Below, piece after piece: positions 4,001 to 61,718 of a DNA stretch of 64,000 bases. The stretch's first letter is position 1, and each line of letters opens with the position of its first letter. The position numbers and the translations under genes are program-made. Source of the DNA: Minisyncoccota bacterium. Lineage in GTDB: Bacteria; Patescibacteriota; Minisyncoccia; Phycocordibacterales; XYD1-FULL-46-19. The notes below the pieces were generated by a model, which saw only the letters and a list, made by a program, of their open reading frames with translations, ran no database searches and was not told the DNA's origin. Where the stretch lies: positions 29,272 through 93,271 of the forward strand of contig JBAYKU010000001.1 of the NCBI GenBank assembly GCA_041664425.1, given 5' to 3'.

Positions 4001-5806
4001 ATGTTTATAAAAAATAAAAAAAATACTGCTGGGTATACCCTCGTAGAGGTTATCGTTTCCGTTGCGGTTTTTTTGGTGATAGCCACGGCGGTCTACGATG
4101 GTTATGTCAGTTTGCTTAGAATGATAACCAGTACTCGTTTAAAAACGGCGGCCATTGCTTTAGCTAACGAACAGCTCGAAATTGCCCATAATTTGCCATA
4201 TGATTCTATTGGGTTGGTTGATGGTATGCCAGCGGGTATTTTACCTCGTTTTGCCACCTCGACTCGCGACGGAGTACCTTTTTCTGTTCGTCTATCAATC
4301 CAAGATATTGATGATCTTTTTGATGGTCAGATTGGTGGCACCCCTAATGATTTAGCCCCTAATGACTACAAACGAGTTGAGGTGGAAATCTCCTGCTTAA
4401 CTTGTAAAAATTTTCAACCCTTTATCGCTTCTACTTTTATCGCCCCTAAAAATTTAGAGAACAATACTGGCAATGGAGCCCTCTTTGTTAAAGTGATTGA
4501 TGCTGACGGTTTGCCAATACCAGAAACTAACGTCCATATTGTTTTAGCTAGCACCACTAAAACAGTTGATATTTCAGAAACAACAAACAGTGTTGGAGTT
4601 TTTCAATTGGTAAATACTTATCCCGCTGATTTAGCATACAAAATATCGGTTTCTAAAACTGGTTATTCTAGTGCCAGGACCTACGCCATTGGTGAGGCTG
4701 GTATTGTTAACCCGGTTCAACCTAATGCTACGGTGGTGGCTGGGCAGGTAACCCAAGTAACTTTGGCTATAGATCGTTTGGCTAAAGTTAACATTAAAAC
4801 AATGAACCCTGTCTGTCAGGCTATTGGTAGTGTGCCAATAGTTTGGCGAGGAACAAAAATTTTAGGAACTGATCCTGATGTTTTTAAAATAGATAGCACT
4901 ATTTACACAGACAGTTCTGGTCTGAAAAATATTGTTGACGCTGAATGGGATACCTATACTCTTATTCCCAACATGTCTGGTTATGCCTTGGCTGGTTCAT
5001 TGCCTCTACAATCTTTAGCAGTGGCTCCTGGATCGAGCAATGACGTTTCAATGATTTTAGTGCCAGCTATTCCTCGGGGTCTCTTGGTCTCAGTCAAAGA
5101 TGCTGCGACTGGTCTACCTCTGGCTAATAGTGATGTTCATTTGTCTGGCGGAAGTTTTGATGACACTATGACGACTAATCGTGGTTTTTGGTCTCAGACA
5201 GATTGGTCAGGAGGAGAGGGTCAGATTTTATGGTCAGATATTAGTCAGTATGCCTCTAGTAGTGATATTGACATCATTAATCCGGTTGGCGATTTGAAGT
5301 TGGTTAAAACTGGTTCAGATTATGCTCCCTCAGGCTGGTTAGAGTCATCCGTTTTTAATACGGGCTCAGAAAATACCTCTTACTATCAAATTGGTTGGTT
5401 GCCGTTGAATCAGCCAGCATCAGCCGGCTATGGTGATGTTAGATTGCAGTTGGCGGTCAACAATGATCCAGCTACTACTACGTGGAATTTTACTGGCCCT
5501 GATGGTACGGCTGATACTTTTTATACTGCCACTACCACTGCTATCAGTTCAACCCTCAATAATTACCAGTATATTCGTTATAAAATTTTTCTACAGACTT
5601 TAGATCTGGCTGTTACTCCGGTGATTTCTGATATGCGTTTAACTTATAGTTCAGAGTGTTTACCTTTTGGTCAGGTTTATTTTGATGGTTTGCCGTCTGG
5701 AACTTATAATTTATCTGTTGGACGCACCGGCTACCAAACGGACACCCAAACTTTTGATTTAAATAGTAATTGGCAAAGCAAGGAAATTCAACTTTCACCA
5801 CAATGA
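4001..5806 (+). CDS. Large pseudopilin-like protein with an N-terminal prepilin (class III) signal
   Basis: Starts MFIKNKKNTAGYTLVEVIVSVAVFLV, i.e. the G|YTLVE prepilin cleavage/methylation motif, then a roughly 570-aa beta-rich C-terminal region. Start chosen at ATG 4001, just after the pilC stop. Confidence 0.6.
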   Translation: MFIKNKKNTAGYTLVEVIVSVAVFLVIATAVYDGYVSLLRMITSTRLKTAAIALANEQLEIAHNLPYDSIGLVDGMPAGILPRFATSTRDGVPFSVRLSIQDIDDLFDGQIGGTPNDLAPNDYKRVEVEISCLTCKNFQPFIASTFIAPKNLENNTGNGALFVKVIDADGLPIPETNVHIVLASTTKTVDISETTNSVGVFQLVNTYPADLAYKISVSKTGYSSARTYAIGEAGIVNPVQPNATVVAGQVTQVTLAIDRLAKVNIKTMNPVCQAIGSVPIVWRGTKILGTDPDVFKIDSTIYTDSSGLKNIVDAEWDTYTLIPNMSGYALAGSLPLQSLAVAPGSSNDVSMILVPAIPRGLLVSVKDAATGLPLANSDVHLSGGSFDDTMTTNRGFWSQTDWSGGEGQILWSDISQYASSSDIDIINPVGDLKLVKTGSDYAPSGWLESSVFNTGSENTSYYQIGWLPLNQPASAGYGDVRLQLAVNNDPATTTWNFTGPDGTADTFYTATTTAISSTLNNYQYIRYKIFLQTLDLAVTPVISDMRLTYSSECLPFGQVYFDGLPSGTYNLSVGRTGYQTDTQTFDLNSNWQSKEIQLSPQ

Positions 5807-6422: not shown

Positions 6423-7841
6423 ATGGAAAGATTGTTATTTAAAAAGAAAAGTGGCTACCTCCTGATTTCTGTCTTGGTTTTTGGGTCTATCGGCGCCATG
6501 ATTATTGGAGTCTTAACTACTTGGCTGGGCACTAATTGGCGAGCAACGATTCAAGTTTCTGAAAGAGAGAGGTCTTTCCAGATTGCTGAAGCTGGAATTG
6601 AATATTATCGTTGGCACTTAGCGCACAGTCCGTTGGATTTTAAGGATGGTACGACGGTTGCTGGTCCCTATGTTCATGAGTTTAGAGACCGGGACAACAA
6701 TTTAATTGGTAGTTTTGAGTTGATTATTACTCCACCTTTGACTGGCTCAACAATTGTCACTATTTTATCTCGTGGCCGAGTAGTCGGTAGCACGGCGACA
6801 AGAGCGATTGAGGTTAAAATGGCGGTACCTTCTCTGGCAAAATACGCAGTGGTGGCCAATAACGTGATGCGCTTTGGTGAGGGAACCGTGACTGTGGGCC
6901 CAATTCACTCCAATGGCGGTATCCGCTTTGATGGGGTAGCTCAAAATTTAGTGACTAGCGCCAAAGATAAATATACCGACCCTGACAGTCCATACGAGCT
7001 AGCTTTTGGTGTTCATACCCACTCCGGTTCCGATGATCCTTCTCCACCTGCCAGTATGCCTAGCCGAGTAGATGTTTTTCAATCCGGTCGGCTATTTCCT
7101 CTGCCTGCGGTTGACTTCTCTGGCTTCACGGCCGATCTGGCTCAAATCAAGACGGATGCTCAGTTTACTGGTAAATATTTTGGTTCGTCTGGTAGCCTTG
7201 GTTACAATATTATTTTAAAAACTGATAATACTTTTGATGTCAAAAAAGTAACGTCACTAGTTTCACCAGACAGTAATTGCTCTACTGATGGTACGACGGG
7301 GTGGGGGACTTGGTCTATTGGAAATACTAGTGCGGTTGGCAATTACCCAATCCCGGCCAATGGACTGATTTTTGCTGAGGATAATGTTTGGGTGGAAGGG
7401 CAAATTAACAATTCTCGAGTAACAATTGTCGCTGCGACTTTTCCTGAAACAACCAATACCTCTAAGAGTATTACTATTAATAAAGACGTTCTCTATACCA
7501 ACTATGATGGTCGAGATGTTATTTCCCTGATCGCTCAGAAAGATATAAATGTGGGACAAGTCAGTGATAATGATTTGCGTATAGATGCTGCCTTGGTGGC
7601 AAAAAATGGTCGCGCGGGTAGATACTACTATAGTACTAGCTGTGATTATAATTCACGTAATTCTTTGACCTTGTATGGCATGATTGCGACCAATAACCGC
7701 TACGGTTTTGCCTATACCAATGGCACTGGTTACGACACACGCAATTTGATCTATGATGGTAATTTGTTGTATGGCCCTCCGCCGTCATTTCCTCTGACAG
7801 CAGAAAACTACGTTGTGATTTCATGGCGAGAGGTTAGGTAA
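6423..7841 (+). CDS. Type IV pilus minor pilin/assembly protein with a PilX-N-like hydrophobic N-terminus
   Basis: N-terminus KKSGYLLISVLVFGSIGAMIIGV resembles the PilX N-terminal domain. It is the last gene of the pilB-pilC operon. Confidence 0.5.
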   Translation: MERLLFKKKSGYLLISVLVFGSIGAMIIGVLTTWLGTNWRATIQVSERERSFQIAEAGIEYYRWHLAHSPLDFKDGTTVAGPYVHEFRDRDNNLIGSFELIITPPLTGSTIVTILSRGRVVGSTATRAIEVKMAVPSLAKYAVVANNVMRFGEGTVTVGPIHSNGGIRFDGVAQNLVTSAKDKYTDPDSPYELAFGVHTHSGSDDPSPPASMPSRVDVFQSGRLFPLPAVDFSGFTADLAQIKTDAQFTGKYFGSSGSLGYNIILKTDNTFDVKKVTSLVSPDSNCSTDGTTGWGTWSIGNTSAVGNYPIPANGLIFAEDNVWVEGQINNSRVTIVAATFPETTNTSKSITINKDVLYTNYDGRDVISLIAQKDINVGQVSDNDLRIDAALVAKNGRAGRYYYSTSCDYNSRNSLTLYGMIATNNRYGFAYTNGTGYDTRNLIYDGNLLYGPPPSFPLTAENYVVISWREVR

Positions 7842-20659: not shown

Positions 20660-20835
20660 ACTACAGCTTAAACATTTTAAAACCACGAAAAAGCCCCCAG
20701 CGGGGCTTTTTCTCTGCTTCGTGTAGGCTCTTCGCCCTCGTTCCTCGCCCAGCTCGGAACAAAAATACTTAAGGGCGAAGACCGGCAGCCTACCACTACG
20801 CAAGGGTTTAAAAATGTTTAAGCTTCCGTTCGCTC
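20660..20835. repeat. Composite repeat element after fusA, bounded by inverted repeats and enclosing the fusA terminator
   Basis: Inverted copies of AGCTTAAACATTTTAAAACC (20665-20684 versus 20799-20820). Terminator at 20686-20713 and a GC-rich hairpin at 20723-20792. The right end is shared with 32798-32858. Confidence 0.5.
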
Positions 20836-20996
20836 AGGATAAGGTCTAAAAATTTTGCCAAATTTTTAAGTAGTTTACCCTTATTTTTAGGCGTTTTTGG
20901 CTGTTTGCTATTGACTTTTATACCTATTTATGCTAATATTGAAGATAGAGTTTTGTCAATTGGAGCCTCTTAGGAGGCAAGCGGAAGGATAGAAAA

Positions 20997-25642: not shown

Positions 25643-25650
25643 GAAAACCC

Positions 25651-25690
25651 AAAACCCCGCCGGCCGAAAGGCTGGCGGGGTTTTGGTTTT
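25651..25690 (+). terminator. Rho-independent terminator immediately after rpsJ
   Basis: ccccgccggcc-gaaa-ggctggcgggg followed by ttttggtttt. Confidence 0.65.
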
Positions 25691-25774
25691 GTGCATAACT
25701 CTAGTTGTGATTATTTTTCTTTCTGTTATTACTTTAATTAGAAAATTGGTCTAACTGATAGTGGAGGAGGCAGA

Positions 25775-26029
25775 ATGACTATCTCAAGGCTATTGAGTTC
25801 CGATTTTGTTAGATGTCATTGCAAAGATGGAACAAGGCAATGTCTGTATTTGTCTCGATCTGCCGTCGTCGTAGATGGTGAACAAAATGAAGGCTGGTTT
25901 TGCAAAAACGGTAAGAATAAGGATGGTATTACTAGAGAAGGGGACATAACCGTTTGTGAGCTATTAGCCAGAGGCTTCAGTGGCGATTGTTACCAATTGA
26001 CAGTTACTGTCGGAAAAAAGAAGCTCTAA
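25775..26029 (+). CDS. Small Cys-rich (6 Cys) hypothetical protein inserted between rpsJ and rplC
   Basis: 84-aa ORF with strong SD GGAGGAGG 5 nt upstream. No signal peptide. Confidence 0.5.
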   Translation: MTISRLLSSDFVRCHCKDGTRQCLYLSRSAVVVDGEQNEGWFCKNGKNKDGITREGDITVCELLARGFSGDCYQLTVTVGKKKL

Positions 26030-26094
26030 GGACCCCTCACTTACATAGTCGAGGGGTCTGCGTGTTTATCTAGAGCCTTAGGAGTGGCTCAGAT

Positions 26095-26122
26095 TTGACT
26101 TTCTGCCCTTATCTGATAATAT
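26095..26122 (+). promoter_or_regulatory. Putative promoter TTGACT-N16-TAATAT for rplC and the downstream genes
   Basis: Hexamers with sigma70-like spacing. Confidence 0.4.
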
Positions 26123-26136
26123 GTTTCGAAGCTCGT

Positions 26137-26187
26137 AGGGGCTTTTTCAGCCCAAGGCTGATCGGCCTGGGGCCGAGTTTTTTTCTT
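26137..26187 (+). promoter_or_regulatory. Attenuator-like leader with alternative hairpins and a terminator-like stem plus U7 just upstream of rplC
   Basis: Three overlapping hairpins: gggct/agccc, cagcc/ggctg, and cggcc-tgg-ggccg followed by ttttttt. Confidence 0.35.
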
Positions 26188-26207
26188 AATATTGAAGCTA
26201 TATCTGT

Positions 26208-28682: not shown

Positions 28683-28690
28683 AAAACACA

Positions 28691-28718
28691 AAAACCCCTA
28701 AAAAGGGGTTTTTGTTTT
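28691..28718 (+). terminator. Terminator after rplB, inside the S10 cluster
   Basis: aacccc-taaaaa-ggggtt followed by tttgtttt. Confidence 0.6.
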
Positions 28719-28791
28719 AAACGAACTGGTCGAGGGCCAACCTTTAAAAGGTGTGCCGAGTAAAAAGTTTGGTAAGCAAGAGGCTTAAAAG

Positions 28792-28819
28792 TTGACAATG
28801 AGCCCTAATTTGCTAGGAT
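28792..28819 (+). promoter_or_regulatory. Putative promoter TTGACA-N16-TAGGAT upstream of rpsS
   Basis: Same hexamer pair as 33404-33432. Followed by a roughly 100-nt structured leader. Confidence 0.4.
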
Positions 28820-28919
28820 ATTAACCAGGCTCATATTGGGCTAAACCCTGACGGAATACGACACTAAAGTGTCGAAAAATCCCAGAGATTTTTATTCCAC
28901 TGGGTAAATTTTTGATTTT

Positions 28920-32021: not shown

Positions 32022-32579
32022 ATGTCCTTCGTTTCAATTCAAAAGAAAATAGAAAAAGCCCAAAAGACTCTGAAAGAGGAGTTGGGTGTTAAGAATGTCA
32101 TGGCTTTGCCCAAGATTACTAAAGTGGTAATCAATTCTGGTACTGGTAAGGCTCGTGATAAAAAACGCAACGAACTAGTGTCTGATCGCTTGGCCAAGAT
32201 TGTTGGTCAAAAGCCCTCCGCTCGCGGTTCCAAAAAATCCATCGCTAGTTTTAAACTGCGCGAGGGTGAAGTGATTGGTTATGCCGCCACTTTGCGTGGA
32301 AAGCGAATGAATGATTTTCTCGATCGCTTGCTTAATGTTGTTTTTCCTCGTATCCGCGACTTCAAAGGTTTTGACTCTAAATGCATTGATGAACTCGGCA
32401 ACCTAACCGTCGGCATCAAGGAACACTCAGTCTTCCCAGAAACCGCCGATGAAGATATCAAAGATGTTTTTGGTATGGCTATCACTATTGTGACTACTGC
32501 CAAAGATAAGAAATCAGCCAAGCTCTTCTTTGAAGCTATTGGTTTTCCGTTTAAGAAGGCGGTTGTGGGTAAAAAGTAA
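32022..32579 (+). CDS. rplE: 50S ribosomal protein L5
   Basis: Conserved L5. Confidence 0.9.
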   Translation: MSFVSIQKKIEKAQKTLKEELGVKNVMALPKITKVVINSGTGKARDKKRNELVSDRLAKIVGQKPSARGSKKSIASFKLREGEVIGYAATLRGKRMNDFLDRLLNVVFPRIRDFKGFDSKCIDELGNLTVGIKEHSVFPETADEDIKDVFGMAITIVTTAKDKKSAKLFFEAIGFPFKKAVVGKK

Positions 32580-32580
32580 G

Positions 32581-32777
32581 TCGCTCGGATTAAAGAAATT
32601 TTCAGCTGACGCTTCATCCGACCAAAATTATAGTCGTCTCACGACGAAAAATGAAAAACTCCTCACAAACGCCTGCCAATCAGCAGGCGTTTGCTCGTCA
32701 AACAGTTTCATTTTTCTGCTCGACTCCTTAATTTTGGTCGGCTTCTCGCGATGCTGAAAATTTCTTTAATCCTCGCT
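32581..32777. repeat. 197-bp symmetric palindromic element made of conserved inverted blocks
   Basis: Centre at about 32680 (perfect hairpin aaacgcctgc-caatca-gcaggcgttt). Matching arm blocks: ggattaaagaaattttcagc, ccgaccaaaatta and aaaaatgaaa mirrored around the centre, separated by non-matching spacers. Confidence 0.6.
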
Positions 32778-32797
32778 TTGGTTGAAATGCTAGGCGA

Positions 32798-32858
32798 TAC
32801 CACTACGCCTGCCTGCGCAGGCAGGCAAGGGTTTTAAAATGTTTAAGCTTTCGTTCTC
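32798..32858. repeat. Second copy of the TACCACTACGC...AAGGGTTTTAAAATGTTTAAGCTTTCGTTC repeat, carrying the inserted palindrome CCTGCCTGCGCAGGCAGG
   Basis: Matches 20790-20835. Palindrome at 32809-32826. Confidence 0.5.
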
Positions 32859-32948
32859 TCAAATTTTCTCCAAACAAAAACCCAGTAGGACAGCTTGTGC
32901 TGACTACTGGGTGAACTCTTCGCGACAGATTTCTGTCGGAGGAGGTGG

Positions 32949-33278
32949 CTACTCTTGTTTGATAAATTCGATTCCATACTTCTTTTCCGTGGGTGATCCT
33001 TGGAAAATAGTAATGGAGTCAGTTACTATTGATTCCCGTTTTGTCGGTGGGACCCTTTCAAGCTTCTTTGCGTTAAAATCATCAATTGCCGCTGCAATCG
33101 ATAACATAAACGCAACTATAATCACTATGACAGAGATCGCCAGCGCTATCTCTAGATGACCAGTTTTTTTTCGAAGCTCCTCTGTTTTTTCCCAGAGCTC
33201 CTTTTTCTTCTGTCGCTCCTCTGCTGTTTCTTTCCAGGGGTCTTCTTTTTCTGTTTTCGACATTCTTCTCCCTTTCAA
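32949..33278 (-). CDS. Small membrane protein (charged N-terminus, one TM) encoded antisense within the spc operon gap
   Basis: 109-aa ORF with SD AAGGGAGAAG upstream and a consensus promoter on the minus strand. Confidence 0.55.
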   Translation of the reverse strand: MKGRRMSKTEKEDPWKETAEERQKKKELWEKTEELRKKTGHLEIALAISVIVIIVAFMLSIAAAIDDFNAKKLERVPPTKRESIVTDSITIFQGSPTEKKYGIEFIKQE

Positions 33279-33301
33279 AAGCAGAACCTTAGCTCTGCCG
33301 G

Positions 33302-33353
33302 TTGACTATCCATTTCTACCTAATATTATACACCTAATCGTATAAAAAGTCAA
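33302..33353. promoter_or_regulatory. Back-to-back overlapping promoters: plus strand TTGACT-N16-TATTAT (33302-33329) and minus strand TTGACT-N17-TATAAT (33325-33353) sharing the -10 region
   Basis: Hexamers read directly on both strands. The minus promoter drives the ORF at 33278. Confidence 0.4.
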
Positions 33354-33403
33354 TAGATAACAATCTTCATGTAACACTTTTGTGTCTTTAGAGGCCTAAA
33401 TCG

Positions 33404-33432
33404 TTGACATTAAGGCCTCTTCTTGATAGGAT
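33404..33432 (+). promoter_or_regulatory. Putative promoter TTGACA-N17-TAGGAT for rpsZ and the downstream spc genes
   Basis: Same hexamers as the rpsS promoter. Followed by a structured leader (33456-33540) with hairpins cccggtggaata/tattccacgggg and atggcgc/gcgccat. Confidence 0.4.
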
Positions 33433-33641
33433 AGCACCAGCTCGTTTGAGCCCCGCCCGGTGGAATATGGCGCTTCTAGGCGCCATAAAATCGCTAGGTC
33501 AAACGATTTTATTCCACGGGGTAAAATATTTACTTGCCCGCCTAAATTTCCCTCGTGTAAATGAGGTAAACAGAGGGAGGACAAAATCATTTTATTAGTC
33601 AGGTATATCAATTCTACCGAGGGAAACTTTGGTGGGTAAAC

Positions 33642-33827
33642 ATGGCAAAAAAATCAGTCATCGCTCGTGCTCAAAAGACCCCGAAGTTTGCTTCGCGGGT
33701 TGTTCGTCGCTGTTTCCGCTGCGGACGTAAGCATGGCTATATGAGAGATTTTAATCTTTGCCGTATCTGTTTCCGTGAATTGGCCAATGATGGCAAAGTT
33801 CCGGGTATTCGAAAATCTTCATGGTAA
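33642..33827 (+). CDS. rpsZ: 30S ribosomal protein S14, type Z (zinc-binding)
   Basis: [23 protein letters not shown]. 61 aa. Confidence 0.85.
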
Positions 33828-35728: not shown

Positions 35729-36160
35729 ATGCAGATTCACGAATTAAAACCAAAGACTAAACTTAAGAAGCGCCGACAAATCGGTCGCGGTGGTAAACGT
35801 GGTACAACTGCTGGTCGCGGTACCAAGGGTCAAAAGGCTCGCGCCGGTCGCAAGCTCCGCCCAGAATTGCGCGATATCATCAAGAAGCTGCCAAAATTGC
35901 GCGGTTACCGTTTTGCTTCTTTTGCTGAGACAGCTTTGCCAGTCAACTTAGCTATCATTGATAAAAAGTATGTGGCTGGTGAAGAAGTGACCGCCATGAC
36001 TCTTTTGGAAAAGGGTTTGATTGGTTCGCGCAAAGGTAAGATGCCACGAGTCAAAATTTTGGCGACTGGTACTTTGACCAAGGGTTTGACTTTCAACGGC
36101 TTGTTGATGTCTGAAGCCGCCAAGGCCAAGATTGAACAAGTGGGTGGTAAAGTGATTTAA
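35729..36160 (+). CDS. rplO: 50S ribosomal protein L15. It directly follows S5, with no L30 gene between them.
   Basis: Conserved L15. Only 5 nt separate it from the rpsE stop. Confidence 0.9.
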   Translation: MQIHELKPKTKLKKRRQIGRGGKRGTTAGRGTKGQKARAGRKLRPELRDIIKKLPKLRGYRFASFAETALPVNLAIIDKKYVAGEEVTAMTLLEKGLIGSRKGKMPRVKILATGTLTKGLTFNGLLMSEAAKAKIEQVGGKVI

Positions 36161-41759: not shown

Positions 41760-41775
41760 TCTATTCTTTAAAATA

Positions 41776-41845
41776 ACCACCCCGCCCTCTCTATATGGTA
41801 ATAAAATAAAGTTTAGTTTAGTAGAAGAAGAGAGGGCGGGGTGGT
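41776..41845. terminator. Strong 16-bp stem hairpin (accaccccgccctctc / gagagggcggggtggt) with a 38-nt loop, followed by T-rich sequence
   Basis: Perfect complementarity of the two arms. Confidence 0.45.
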
Positions 41846-41883
41846 TTTGCTTTTATGGCAGTCTTATGCCATCATAGGAATAT

Positions 41884-47134: not shown

Positions 47135-47183
47135 AAGACCTATATAATATACAGGAAAAATTAGCTTTGTCCAGCCTGCACAC

Positions 47184-47300
47184 CAATAATGGCATAGTGC
47201 TTATTTTTATTAGGAGAACGCTCGGGCCTCTTTTTAACTAGATTGTTAAACTTAGAAATAAATCCAATTAGGCACAAAAATGATGCCACTATTGGTGTGC
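47184..47300 (-). promoter_or_regulatory. Possible L20-leader-like long-range pairing between the infC 3' end and the infC-rpmI spacer
   Basis: cctgcacaccaataatggc (47184-47202) is the reverse complement, with 1 mismatch, of gccactattggtgtgcagg (47281-47299). Confidence 0.3.
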
Positions 47301-47822
47301 AGGTTTGGCGTTGCGGTCTCTTTCAATGACTACAGTGATACCCTTGGGGCTCTTTTGGGCTGGATCGGAGATCTTGAAGTCCTCGCTGATCAGCTTGAGC
47401 ATACGCTCTAGACGCTCGTGGAGGAACTTAGGATCGAGGTATTTGGCTCGGCCAGGGAGGAAAAGGTTGATTTTGACCCGGTGGCCGTCGTGGAGGAACT
47501 CCGAGGCCTTTTTAGCCTTCATTTCGAGGTCGTGCTCGCCGGTACCGATTTTGACCTGGAGAGATTTGGTTTCGGTAGTATGGACTTTGGCTCGGGATTC
47601 TCGAGCTTTGCGATCCTGAATATATTGGTATTTGCCGAAATCCATGATTTTGGCCACAGGTGGGACCGCGTCAGGGGAGATTTCAATCAAGTCAGCTTCA
47701 CGCTCCTCGGCCAAAGCCAAGGCGTCAGCCAAAGACAAAACACCCAAGTTGCCTTCCTGGTCGTCAATGACCCGGAGCTCCTGGGCGCGAATTTCTTTAT
47801 TGATGCGGACGCGATTACTCAA
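47289..47822 (-). CDS. infC: Translation initiation factor IF-3; non-ATG (TTG) start in the ORF track
   Basis: NKEIRAQELRVIDDQGNLGV... The in-frame upstream sequence has a stop and no ATG. Confidence 0.85.
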   Translation of the reverse strand: MSNRVRINKEIRAQELRVIDDQEGNLGVLSLADALALAEEREADLIEISPDAVPPVAKIMDFGKYQYIQDRKARESRAKVHTTETKSLQVKIGTGEHDLEMKAKKASEFLHDGHRVKINLFLPGRAKYLDPKFLHERLERMLKLISEDFKISDPAQKSPKGITVVIERDRNAKPAHQ

Positions 47823-48334: not shown

Positions 48335-48354
48335 TGTTTTTAATACGGGGATGA

Positions 48355-48741
48355 TCGGCTTTGATAGGAAGTCTCATTCTTCTAGTGTATGCCGAGGATT
48401 CTAACTGTCTCGTAAAATCTGTTAGAAAAATGCAAATGCCAACAATACTGGCAAAAGCGTAGTAAGTCCTTACTTCGCTCCGGCTTTCGCTCTAGCTTAG
48501 CTAGACCCATTGTCGGTGTTTACTCCAACGTTTCTTCCGGCTGGTTGGCAGTAAACATTTTCGCAAGTCGGAATCGTGCGCCAGAGGTGCTCCGCTCTGG
48601 TGACCTAAAATAATTGGAGATCGATTAAAAAGTTTTCTGTTCGTCTTATAGCTTTTTGATTTAAACAAATTAGACGATCTACGCATATAGAGTCTATTAG
48701 AGTGCCTTTTTACACGGCGGTTCGATTCCGCCCATCTCCAC
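48355..48741 (+). ncRNA. ssrA: tmRNA (ssrA)
   Basis: 5' end GGGGATGATCGGCTTTGATAGGAAGTC and 3' end GGCGGTTCGATTCCGCCCATCTCCAC (tRNA-like T-arm and acceptor with a G3-U wobble). An internal tag ORF ends ...APAFALA-stop. CCA is not encoded. Confidence 0.8.
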
Positions 48742-48756
48742 AAAGACAAAAACTCA

Positions 48757-49649: not shown

Positions 49650-50080
49650 ATGGGCGGAGAAAGGAAATACGTATGTTTGTACCAAAGAATGTAACTCTGC
49701 GAGAGGTCATCCGGGCCGTGGTGTCAGGATGTCTTCATCAAGAAGGAGGCTCCTTTCATAGGAGGGAGAAGATGTTCCATTTTCTTATCATGATCATACG
49801 GAAGGAGCTCCACTTGCCTCCCGGAGATCACCTTCATGATGTTGATTTGGAACAACGCCTTGGCTCCAAATCAACGTGTGTTTACGTCTGTATCACTTTG
49901 GCGTAAGATCTAGGTCGTCGGTTGCGAGCGAGGTCCTCTACGGGGGAACTCGCTCATTTGTTTTTATTGGAGTGCTCTGTTTAAAAACCCCGCCGGCTCC
50001 TGCCTGCGCAGGCAGGTTGCCGTGGAGACAACCCGCGTCAGCGGAGCGGTACCCTTCATGGGTATAGGACGCACAACCTG
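49650..50080. other. GC-rich non-coding island with hairpins and repeat-family motifs (CCTGCCTGCGCAGGCAGG at 49999-50016; ACCTGTTTTAGG at 50076-50087)
   Basis: Only short ORFs of low plausibility. Several stable hairpins, e.g. gttgatttgga...tccaaatcaac. Confidence 0.35.
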
Positions 50081-54432: not shown

Positions 54433-54707
54433 CTGCAAAACTTTTTACTCGGCGCACCTGTTTTAGGGTACGGATTTCCCTGGCCCTATGGAATAAATTT
54501 GTTCAAAAACTTTCTTAATTTCAAAACCCAGACCCAAGCCCAACCATTTTGAAATTAAGAAAGTTTTTTTGACAAATTTCGCTTCGCTATTCCATAGGGT
54601 GAACTTAGAAAATCCTGTCCGCCAGCTGGCGGATCGGCCATGCCTGTACAGGCAGGTCGACAGCCTCACGACCCCCTAAAACAGGTGCGCCTTCGACAAG
54701 TTTGCAG
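54433..54707. mobile_element. MITE-like non-autonomous element with imperfect terminal inverted repeats of about 34 bp and an internal long hairpin
   Basis: TIRs ctgcaaaactttttactcggcgcacctgttttaggg / ccctaaaacaggtgcgccttcgacaagtttgcag. Inner hairpin 54484-54599. Shares CCTGTACAGGCAGG and ACCTGTTTTAGG motifs with other copies. Confidence 0.5.
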
Positions 54708-57447: not shown

Positions 57448-57521
57448 GCGCCTGTAGCTCAGCTGGTTAGAGCACGGAGCTTATACCTCCGCGGTCCCTG
57501 GTTCGAATCCAGGCGGGCGCA
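57448..57521 (+). tRNA. tRNA-Ile with anticodon UAU
   Basis: Cloverleaf: acceptor gcgcctg/cgggcgc, D-arm gctc...gagc, anticodon stem cggag/ctccg with loop cTTATAc (anticodon TAT), T-arm cctgg-ttcgaat-ccagg. No encoded CCA. Confidence 0.75.
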
Positions 57522-61626: not shown

Positions 61627-61718
61627 GGAGAGGTGGCTGAGTGGCCGAAAGCGCCTCACTGCTAACGAGGTAGGGGTTTTAAAGCCCCTCGAGGGTTCGA
61701 ATCCCTCCCTCTCCGCCA
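61627..61718 (+). tRNA. tRNA-Ser (anticodon GCU) with long variable arm and encoded CCA
   Basis: Acceptor ggagagg/cctctcc, anticodon loop cTGCTAa, variable arm gtaggggttttaaagcccctc, T-arm gaggg-ttcgaat-ccctc, then gCCA. Confidence 0.85.

Follow-up and report, generated by a model that had tools for sequence, protein, structure and literature searches.

The stretch of DNA analysed here, referred to as the window, comprises 64,000 nucleotides of contig JBAYKU010000001.1 (assembly GCA_041664425.1) and includes a ribosomal protein gene cluster in which rplE, encoding L5, and rpsZ, encoding a zinc-type S14, are separated by a gap of 1,062 bp. From left to right, the gap contains a 187-bp palindrome bracketed by short direct repeats, a repeat-family fragment interrupted by a GC palindrome, a gene for a small membrane protein on the minus strand with its own promoter and terminator, and a promoter and structured leader preceding rpsZ (Table 1). 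Every feature that an earlier reading of the sequence alone (the original prediction) had listed for this gap was found to be present. The small protein and L5 carry the NCBI name 'Candidatus Paceibacterota', and the 90%-identity cluster of L5 also has proteins of Candidatus Vogelbacteria; the host is a Vogelbacteria-like Paceibacterota bacterium of the Candidate Phyla Radiation (CPR).

The original prediction regarded the gap as a 1-kb insertion in the spc operon, which was not borne out when relatives were compared. From species-representative genomes, 80 loci around L5 relatives (52–69% identity) were taken, 64 of which also contained rpsZ. The median rplE–rpsZ gap in these 64 Paceibacteria was 1,077 bp (44–3,756 bp), and the gap exceeded 500 bp in 47 and 1 kb in 33. 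The gaps held unrelated open reading frames (ORFs) on both strands, encoding TruB-like proteins, nucleotide kinases, pilin-like proteins, and several small transmembrane (TM) proteins. The antisense gene of the window, previously thought highly unusual inside a core ribosomal cluster, accordingly lies, in all probability, between operons, at a place where the gaps of relatives hold genes on both strands. A strong promoter match (TTGACN-N16-18-TAnnnT) was located at most 300 nt upstream of rpsZ in 52 of the 64 loci, compared to a chance rate of approximately 0.01–0.02 per locus, a rough estimate of ours rather than a computed value. The typical form was TTGACW-N14-TGCTAGTAT (TTGACW...TGnTAnnAT), and it was kept even where the gap measured only 44–90 bp. 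The TTGACA-N17-(TGA)TAGGAT promoter of the window belongs to the same type and is kept in the sister genomes L087, L088, and L094, so that this part of the original prediction stands as a real, conserved rpsZ promoter. On balance, the rplE|rpsZ junction is probably a regular operon boundary in Paceibacteria, and the gap an inter-operon spacer rather than a within-operon insertion. The upstream unit would stop after rplE, and rpsZ would begin a new unit from its own sigma-70-type promoter (33404–33432) and structured leader, with the later genes transcribed from the same promoter. Presumably because no co-transcription is needed across the junction, it has turned into a hypervariable slot.

Table 1. 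Features of the rplE–rpsZ gap and its flanking genes (positions in the window; percentages are nucleotide identities).
Feature	Position	Strand	Remarks
rplE (uL5)	32022–32579	+	Pfam Ribosomal_L5 and L5_C; probably closes the upstream transcription unit
Left direct repeat TCGCT(C)	32581–32585		Sister homology (L091, L089/L094) stops right after TCGCTC
Foldback palindrome 'wPal', 187 bp	32586–32772		Four nested perfect inverted-repeat blocks around a hairpin with an 11-bp stem and 6-nt loop
Right TCGCT copy and conserved spacer TCGCTTTGGTTGAAATGCTA	32773–32792		95% identity to L094 4228–4248; aligns with L091
Family B right-end fragment, broken by an 18–20-bp GC palindrome (32807–32826)	32790–32861		92% to 20800–20836; 87% to L091 1213–1280
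Antisense gene, 3' region: CGACAGAAATCTGTCG hairpin followed by intrinsic terminator	32871–32948	-	Fold z = -4.9
Small single-TM protein gene	32949–33263	-	104 aa from ATG 33263; 109 aa if from TTG 33278
Overlapping promoter matches	33302–33353	both	Minus TTGACT-N17-TATAAT 33353–33325; plus TTGACT-N16-TATTAT 33302–33329
rpsZ promoter TTGACA-N17-(TGA)TAGGAT	33404–33432	+	Conserved across the clade; 82% identical to L094
rpsZ 5' leader	33433–33641	+	Hairpin GCTCgtttGAGC, Y-shaped module of about 77 nt, long helix covering the Shine–Dalgarno region
rpsZ (zinc-type uS14, 61 aa)	33642–33827	+	Pfam Ribosomal_S14; probably opens the downstream unit

Two other spacers of the cluster were inspected. 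In the rpsJ|rplC spacer (25643–26207, 565 bp), a bidirectional terminator (25645–25690) is followed by a plus-strand ORF for an 84-aa Cys-rich protein (25775–26029) with the Shine–Dalgarno (SD) sequence GGAGGAGG, and then by a promoter (TTGACT..TGATAATAT) and a hairpin leader before rplC, which gives another filled operon boundary. The rplB|rpsS spacer (28683–28919) has a bidirectional terminator at approximately 28690–28716, a promoter (TTGACA..TGCTAGGAT) at approximately 28791–28819, and a hairpin leader before rpsS. Since both spacers contain a terminator and then a promoter of the type that precedes rpsZ, the ribosomal protein cluster of the window appears to consist of several transcription units. 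The spc operon of Escherichia coli has the order rplN-rplX-rplE-rpsN-rpsH-... and is under translational feedback by S8 at rplE. The gene order is shared, and a structured RNA likewise precedes a gene of the cluster, where it could serve feedback control. However, the Paceibacteria unit begins at rpsZ with a promoter of its own, the leader precedes rpsZ instead of rplE, and the window leader varies even among sister genomes.

The content of the slot was compared among closer L5 relatives (85–92% identity). In L088 (L5 85% identical), the gap of about 200 bp consists of a canonical bidirectional terminator, a promoter, and a short leader. Among the genomes with a 185-aa L5 (the window, L089, L091/L092, L093–L099, and L135–L140), homology to the window stops exactly after TAAG-TCGCTC and restarts at TCGCTY-GGTT(G/TT)AAA(T/C)GCT. 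The site bracketed in this way holds in the sisters a palindromic element of 155–160 bp, of which two variants occur, one with the closing arms AACCATAAACTTTTTAGACA (L091, L135, L140) and one with GACTTGTTAAAATAAAAAG (L094, L098, L137–L139). Both variants contain a canonical A5-hairpin-T5 terminator and a second long hairpin. To the right of the brackets, L135/L136 carry a plus-strand gene for a 535-aa dockerin protein and L140 a gene for a 412-aa peptidoglycan-binding/PKD protein followed by the small minus-strand gene, while L094 has nothing extra. In the Vogelbacteria-like subclade of the window, the order in the slot is fixed: the rplE stop, TCGCTC, a palindromic element of 150–190 bp, TCGCTY-GGTTGAAATGCT, optional cargo, a minus-strand gene for a small membrane or secreted protein with its own promoter and terminator, and finally the rpsZ promoter and leader. 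The anatomy of the gap and the clade-wide boundary are thus accompanied by a conserved frame within which element and cargo turn over. With respect to presence or absence of the 'insertion' in related genomes, which the original prediction had proposed to check, the gap proved common across the clade and the frame of the slot was found in the sisters, whereas the 187-bp palindrome was not.

The palindromic elements of this group fall into families. As family B we define the elements at 20665–20824 of the window, 1016–1174 of L091, and approximately 4068–4228 of L094. The member in the window (160 bp) lies downstream of fusA; its closing arms (AGCTTAAACATTTTAAAACC) measure 20 nt and enclose a bidirectional terminator and a further hairpin, and the element is 69% identical to that of L091. 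Family B members align with each other at local-alignment z values of 16–31; the sequence of their 20-bp closing stems differs among genomes with the pairing kept, and they are found after fusA in the window and after rplE in the sisters. Family C is a hairpin repeat of about 148 bp present in three copies (87–91% identical) between the genes for L14/L24, L24/L5, and S8/L6 in L094 (2900–3042, 3353–3500, and 5592–5733) and also in L089, L092, L093, and L095–L098; it is absent from the window, where the corresponding junctions measure 5–15 bp. The 41-aa ORFs that gene callers place over family C are probably spurious. Evidently, this group harbours active palindromic repeats.

The 187-bp palindrome of the window had been described as a 197-bp mirror-symmetric element. 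The nested hairpin is real, but its symmetry is that of a reverse complement and the palindrome proper covers 187 bp (from 32586/7), the outer 5 nt of the longer version (TCGCT at 32581–32585 and 32773–32777) being direct and not inverted repeats. Its arms are 100% complementary throughout: 20 nt in the outer pair (32587–32606/32753–32772), 13 nt in the second (32618–32630/32729–32741), 11 nt in the third (32646–32656/32706–32716), and 11 nt around the 6-nt loop of the central pair (32666–32676/32683–32693). The blocks between the arms (11/11, 15/12, and 9/12 nt) are fully non-complementary. Compared to shuffled sequences, the fold had z values of -10.1 on the plus and -10.9 on the minus strand.

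Most simply, the palindrome is a non-autonomous foldback element resembling a miniature inverted-repeat transposable element (MITE), and as such presumably mobile. It ends in perfect 20-nt terminal inverted repeats (TIRs), is small, and is apparently non-coding: the overlapping plus-strand ORFs (75 and 48 aa) enter from outside and have negative codon scores. The repeats TCGCT(C) and TCGCT(T) directly abut its arms, and in every sister they flank other elements. Bacterial MITEs and foldback repeats with transcription signals include the Correia elements of Neisseria, the enterobacterial ERIC/IRU, and the pneumococcal RUP/BOX. The palindrome resembles these in its size class (150–190 bp), its lack of coding content, its TIRs of about 20 nt, its intergenic position at the 3' end of a gene, its long RNA hairpin, and the short direct repeats at its ends; furthermore, families B and C, which are related in kind, occupy varying loci among related genomes and contain terminators. 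It differs in being known in one copy, in having a TCGCT repeat that is common to all sisters and may not be a target-site duplication, and in lacking sequence similarity to any named family; neither a partner transposase nor TIRs shared with an insertion sequence were identified, though no search aimed at transposases was made.

Two results weigh against a mobile element. Only one copy of the palindrome is known, in contrast to the multicopy nature of MITEs: none was found in the rest of the window, among about 140 fetched loci, or in a JGI metagenome scan. Additionally, about 10 sister contigs showed no empty site, in which TAAGTCGCTC would be followed directly by YGGTTGAAATGCT; a target-site duplication could therefore account for the TCGCT repeats, but they may equally be ancestral sequence. 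Five matches to the 20-nt arm in JGI metagenomes were rejected as chance, each being a lone 20-mer in an unrelated context. An integron attC cassette was likewise rejected: the ends of the palindrome (GGATTAAAG and CTTTAATCC) lack a GTTRRRY core, and its neighbours are ribosomal genes with no integrase context.

The main rival, which we consider possible though somewhat unlikely, is that the palindrome is an orthologue of the sisters' family B element that was remodelled in place, by arm-symmetric (concerted) change and nested additions around the core of a bidirectional terminator. Such a history would be in line with the same site and TCGCT brackets in every sister and with the lack of an empty site among them. 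The closing stems of family B in L091 and L094 are wholly different yet paired, the centre of the palindrome (A-tract and GC hairpin) aligns weakly to the terminator hairpin of L094 (z = 2.7), and in L087, L088, and L090 the terminators that follow rplE typically lie within extended perfect palindromes. However, the palindrome has no significant similarity to any family B member (local-alignment z 0.0–2.7), while those members are strongly alike across genomes and loci. The architecture also differs, a single symmetric stack in the palindrome compared to a closing stem with two side-by-side internal hairpins in family B, and the element itself is unalignable between flanks that are 87–95% identical. 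We therefore prefer the foldback element, which in the window would fill the place taken in the sisters by the terminator-bearing family B. A distinctly improbable extension of this view is that the TCGCTC...TCGCTY site acts as a docking site for the site-specific exchange of unrelated palindromic 'terminator cassettes' in Vogelbacteria-like CPR bacteria, with the 187-bp palindrome as the first of a new family. If so, the rplE|rpsZ junction together with the small-membrane-protein slot would be a locus of programmed variability within genomes that are otherwise minimal.

Next to the foldback element, the gap contains the 18-nt GC palindrome CCTGCCTGCGCAGGCAGG (32808–32825), which the original prediction had assigned to a repeat family. 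In line with this, an identical copy was found at 49999 and one with three mismatches at 54639, compared to none in shuffled sequences. The segment adjoining it (32825–32861) matches one near the right end of the window's family B element, and L091 shares with the window a broken family B right end that contains the GC palindrome (Table 1). The 35 matches of its 16-nt core in viral contigs were set aside as uninformative, since by our rough estimate they are at about chance level. The exact 18-nt palindrome also occurs twice (824–841 and 7772–7789) in the distant relative L027 (L5 59% identical), once just upstream of rpsS and once apparently inside an N-terminal coding extension of rpsE. Beside the second copy in the window, 50017–50075 (GTGGAGACAACCCGCG..GCGGAGC.GT.CCCTT.ATGGGTAT) is 84% identical to L090 1970–2011, part of the rplE-downstream spacer of that sister, and represents either a conserved element or a repeat. 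Further long intergenic palindromes of the window are found at 54451–54691, 47175–47303, and 41775–41846; the first of these (241 bp) has perfect outer and inner arms of 18 and 22 nt, and hairpins, including a variant of the GC palindrome, are inserted in one of its arms.

Turning to the antisense gene, the minus-strand ORF (32949–33278) comprises 109 codons from its TTG. The ATG at 33263 is the likelier start because it is preceded by an SD sequence, GGGAG (reverse complement of 33268–33272). The TM segment, promoter, and SD sequence of the original prediction were thus recovered, and its 109-aa protein was shortened to 104 aa. The TM segment spans residues 39–57 with a mean Kyte–Doolittle hydropathy of 3.0, and the promoter matches the consensus at 11 of 12 positions. 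Downstream, a 13-bp interrupted stem followed by UUUUUGUUU (32911–32871) forms the hairpin and U-run of an intrinsic terminator, which a simple scan missed because of its bulges. Of the six frames, the minus frame of this ORF had the highest codon score. With promoter, SD sequence, and terminator, and with its slot kept in the sisters, the gene is a well-formed unit with independent signals. An AlphaFold2 model of the 104-aa protein consisted of one long helix (residues 14–69) and a disordered tail.

The same place and orientation are occupied in sister genomes by a gene for a protein of 130–131 aa with an N-terminal signal-anchor (family A6; L087, L093–L098; P0141–P0143), for which only three homologues were found among 5.8 billion proteins. 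Comparison of the sister genes of L094 and L087 gave a ratio of nonsynonymous to synonymous substitution rates (dN/dS) of 0.27 at a dS of approximately 1.1, which is near saturation; this ratio indicates that the sister gene is real and fast-evolving. The window shares with L094 the minus promoter and 5' untranslated region (UTR) (33263–33334, 72% identical to L094 4703–4773) and a hairpin just 3' of the stop codon (32920–32948, 83% identical to L094 4265–4292). Moreover, the C-terminal motif P..K...[IV]EF[IV][KR]QE-stop of the sister family is present in frame at the end of the window ORF, and BLASTP aligned the window and sister proteins over the last 14–17 residues only (E 0.04–0.2). A minus-strand TTGACA/T-N17-TATAAT promoter was found in all three lineages (window, L087, and L094), and positional orthology of the antisense slot with L094 holds. 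The antisense gene is accordingly most likely a strongly remodelled sister gene that kept its promoter, 5'UTR, last 14 or so codons, and 3' hairpin, whereas its body is new and consists of an N-terminus rich in charges, a single TM helix, and a tail of short length. We take the 104-aa ORF to be a heavily remodelled form of this lineage-specific slot gene that is probably expressed.

Several results count against such an expressed gene. Its codon score of 0.03 is near the bottom of the range of genes, which average 0.28. A word-indexed search of 5.8 × 10⁹ proteins returned only the protein itself, and a full HMMER search of 1.84 × 10⁹ representatives added only P0122, which was rejected as a homologue because it is a spurious translation of tandem repeats matched via a hydrophobic stretch. 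Pfam gave only sub-threshold noise, and phmmer found nothing among 504 ORFs from the gaps of relatives; the search for homologues and structure suggested earlier thus yielded a single-helix model and no homologue. With hhalign, the probability of a relationship between the window protein and family A6 was 2.4%, and apart from the segments described above the coding sequence was unalignable at both the DNA and the protein level. It is therefore worth considering that the ORF is a decayed remnant of the 130-aa sister gene whose frame is open by chance. The orphan status of the protein, its low codon score, the restriction of sister resemblance to the last 14 codons, and the modelled single helix with disordered tail would all suit a remnant. 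We nonetheless regard decay as unlikely, given that a frame of 104 codons is intact and is the best of six, that the promoter (with its -35 improved to TTGACT), SD sequence, and terminator are all kept, that the strong TM segment is flanked by positive charges, and that no frameshifted fragments of the sister protein were found in the other frames.

The -10 of the plus-strand TTGACT-N16-TATTAT match overlaps that of the minus promoter (Table 1). Both members of the 'back-to-back' pair in the original prediction, and the overlap between them, are indeed present, but the plus-strand partner is weakly conserved, its -35 reading TTAACT in the sisters.

Situated between rplE and the antisense gene, the palindrome would as RNA give the rplE transcript a long 3'-terminal hairpin. 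In the sisters, the rplE unit would be ended by the canonical bidirectional terminator inside family B. Most likely, the palindrome would act as a terminator or insulator and 3' stabiliser between convergent units. It resembles bidirectional terminators in lying between convergent units and in its core of A-tract, GC hairpin, and T-tract, and the sisters have canonical ones at its position. It differs from these in that its A/T tracts are removed from the central stem and in that two more perfect stems, with sizeable internal loops, extend the structure. Correspondingly, it is not a canonical intrinsic terminator: a consensus scan called neither the central hairpin nor the whole, and the U-rich tracts begin 9–12 nt after the 11-bp central stem.

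The original prediction had also raised the question of whether the palindrome is an RNA or a DNA-level site. A functional structured RNA, either an element of the rplE 3'UTR or a small RNA in which selection keeps paired blocks and internal loops, would account for the pairing of all 55 of 55 arm positions and for the unpaired parts being whole segments of 9–15 nt with no scattered mismatches. The fold is highly stable, and a weak promoter-like match (CTGACG-N17-TATAGT), from which such a small RNA would be transcribed, lies inside it at 32606–32634. We consider this very unlikely, however. The palindrome is absent from every sister genome at 89–92% L5 identity, and its place is taken there by unrelated palindromic elements, which is at odds with a conserved RNA. 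No Rfam 15 family reached the gathering threshold in region 32500–33700, and at E ≤ 10 the best sub-threshold matches in the gap were implausible (Histone3, miRNAs). The arms pair purely by Watson–Crick pairs with no G.U pairs, so that neither strand is favoured, and both strands fold equally well, as expected of a DNA-level repeat.

The hairpin-rich leader noted before rpsZ was recovered as well, with a fold z of -3.7. A 22-nt arm pair (33534–33555/33618–33639) takes in the GGTGGG SD region that immediately precedes the ATG, and the resulting helix may modulate translation of rpsZ. The small hairpin GCTCgtttGAGC (33440–33451) directly follows the promoter and is itself directly followed by the Y-shaped module of about 77 nt (33452–33528), which is specific to the window and absent from L087; part of the leader looks like another inserted palindromic module. 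From 33529 to 33660, the window is 89% identical to L087 and the long helix is common to both. Pairing in the helix is preserved by two of the changes (G.U to A-U and G-C to G.U), and a third disrupts a pair at its end. The leaders of L094 and L088 differ from that of the window. There is accordingly little evidence that the leader of the window itself contains a conserved regulatory RNA.

Two types of leader were observed among the relatives. In 28 of the 80 loci, a sense-strand motif of 84 nt lies 27–46 nt upstream of the rpsZ ATG (100 nt in one instance), as detected with a covariance model (R1) at E ≤ 1 × 10⁻⁷ (L008, L013, L025, L028, L031–L033, L039, L044–L046, L050, L051, L053–L055, L057, L059, L063, L064, L068, L070, L074, L075, L077, L078, L080, and L081; for example L046 4605–4689 and L075 1389–1472). 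Its consensus is RATCYR..TTTCTCC-[stem-loop]-GAAAA..GATAT. RNAalifold predicted 27 pairs, 17 of which showed compensatory changes; the internal loop CUC/AAA and the 3' GAUAU are invariant. No Rfam family reached the gathering threshold for the motif in the 10 loci scanned. Judged from these sequence patterns, the R1 motif is a good candidate for a new ribosomal protein leader: as in the r-leader families of Rfam, a covarying motif is situated in the 5'UTR of a ribosomal protein operon, the difference being that R1 had no Rfam 15 match in the loci scanned and that the window does not have the motif. With filters off, the R1 model did not match the window leader, and its best match in the window was an unrelated AT hairpin at 54493. 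In the second type, the rpsZ promoter is directly followed by a short GC hairpin, frequently GAGCTC...GAGCT or CCCTTnAAGGG, and a U-run; this arrangement was found within the first 40 nt in L005, L007, L015, L016, L022, L024, and L038, and also in L047, L060, L065, L066, L073, and L087. It has the appearance of an attenuator. In the window, the hairpin of this second type is retained (33440–33451) and the 77-nt hairpin module takes the place of the U-run.

Elsewhere in the cluster, rpsE is directly followed by an ORF of 143 aa (35729–36160), taken as rplO because the corresponding 143-aa gene of L087 carries Ribosomal_L27A. There is no rpmD between rpsE and the presumed rplO of the window. The absence of rpmD is usual for CPR genomes. 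The window also contains a transfer-messenger RNA (tmRNA; 48347–48743) and two tRNAs (57448–57521 and 61627–61715).

The contigs of L089, L099, and L137–L139 end within the palindromic element after rplE, and L093 has an N-run there (4067–4077), which indicates that such repeats break short-read assemblies. Although these breaks could suggest that the arrangement in the window is itself a chimeric join at a repeat, as the original prediction had allowed, such an artefact is extremely unlikely, since the independent Logan assembly of SRR18595301 (L001) reproduces 4,100 bp covering the entire gap at 100% identity and the identical slot frame is found in many independent sister assemblies.

None of the gap features could be placed in a named family with Rfam, Pfam, or the protein databases. 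Searches of the open-access literature for MITEs in CPR bacteria, the spc operon of Patescibacteria, and ribosomal protein leaders in Parcubacteria yielded no description, and a clade-wide cut in the ribosomal protein cluster that is used as a hypervariable slot seems to be undescribed so far. The features specific to the window, a palindromic repeat and an orphan ORF, are ordinary in kind, and the comparative pattern is more valuable. In a large class of CPR bacteria, a conserved promoter at rplE|rpsZ regularly cuts the S10-spc cluster, which textbooks show as contiguous. The cut is a hotspot where hairpin repeats and small, fast-evolving genes for surface or membrane proteins come and go among genomes with approximately 90% identical L5. 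This is relevant to the use of ribosomal protein synteny as a tool for binning and phylogeny of CPR genomes, to contig assembly, as breaks fall inside these palindromes, and to the question of how new small genes arise and are tried out in reduced genomes.

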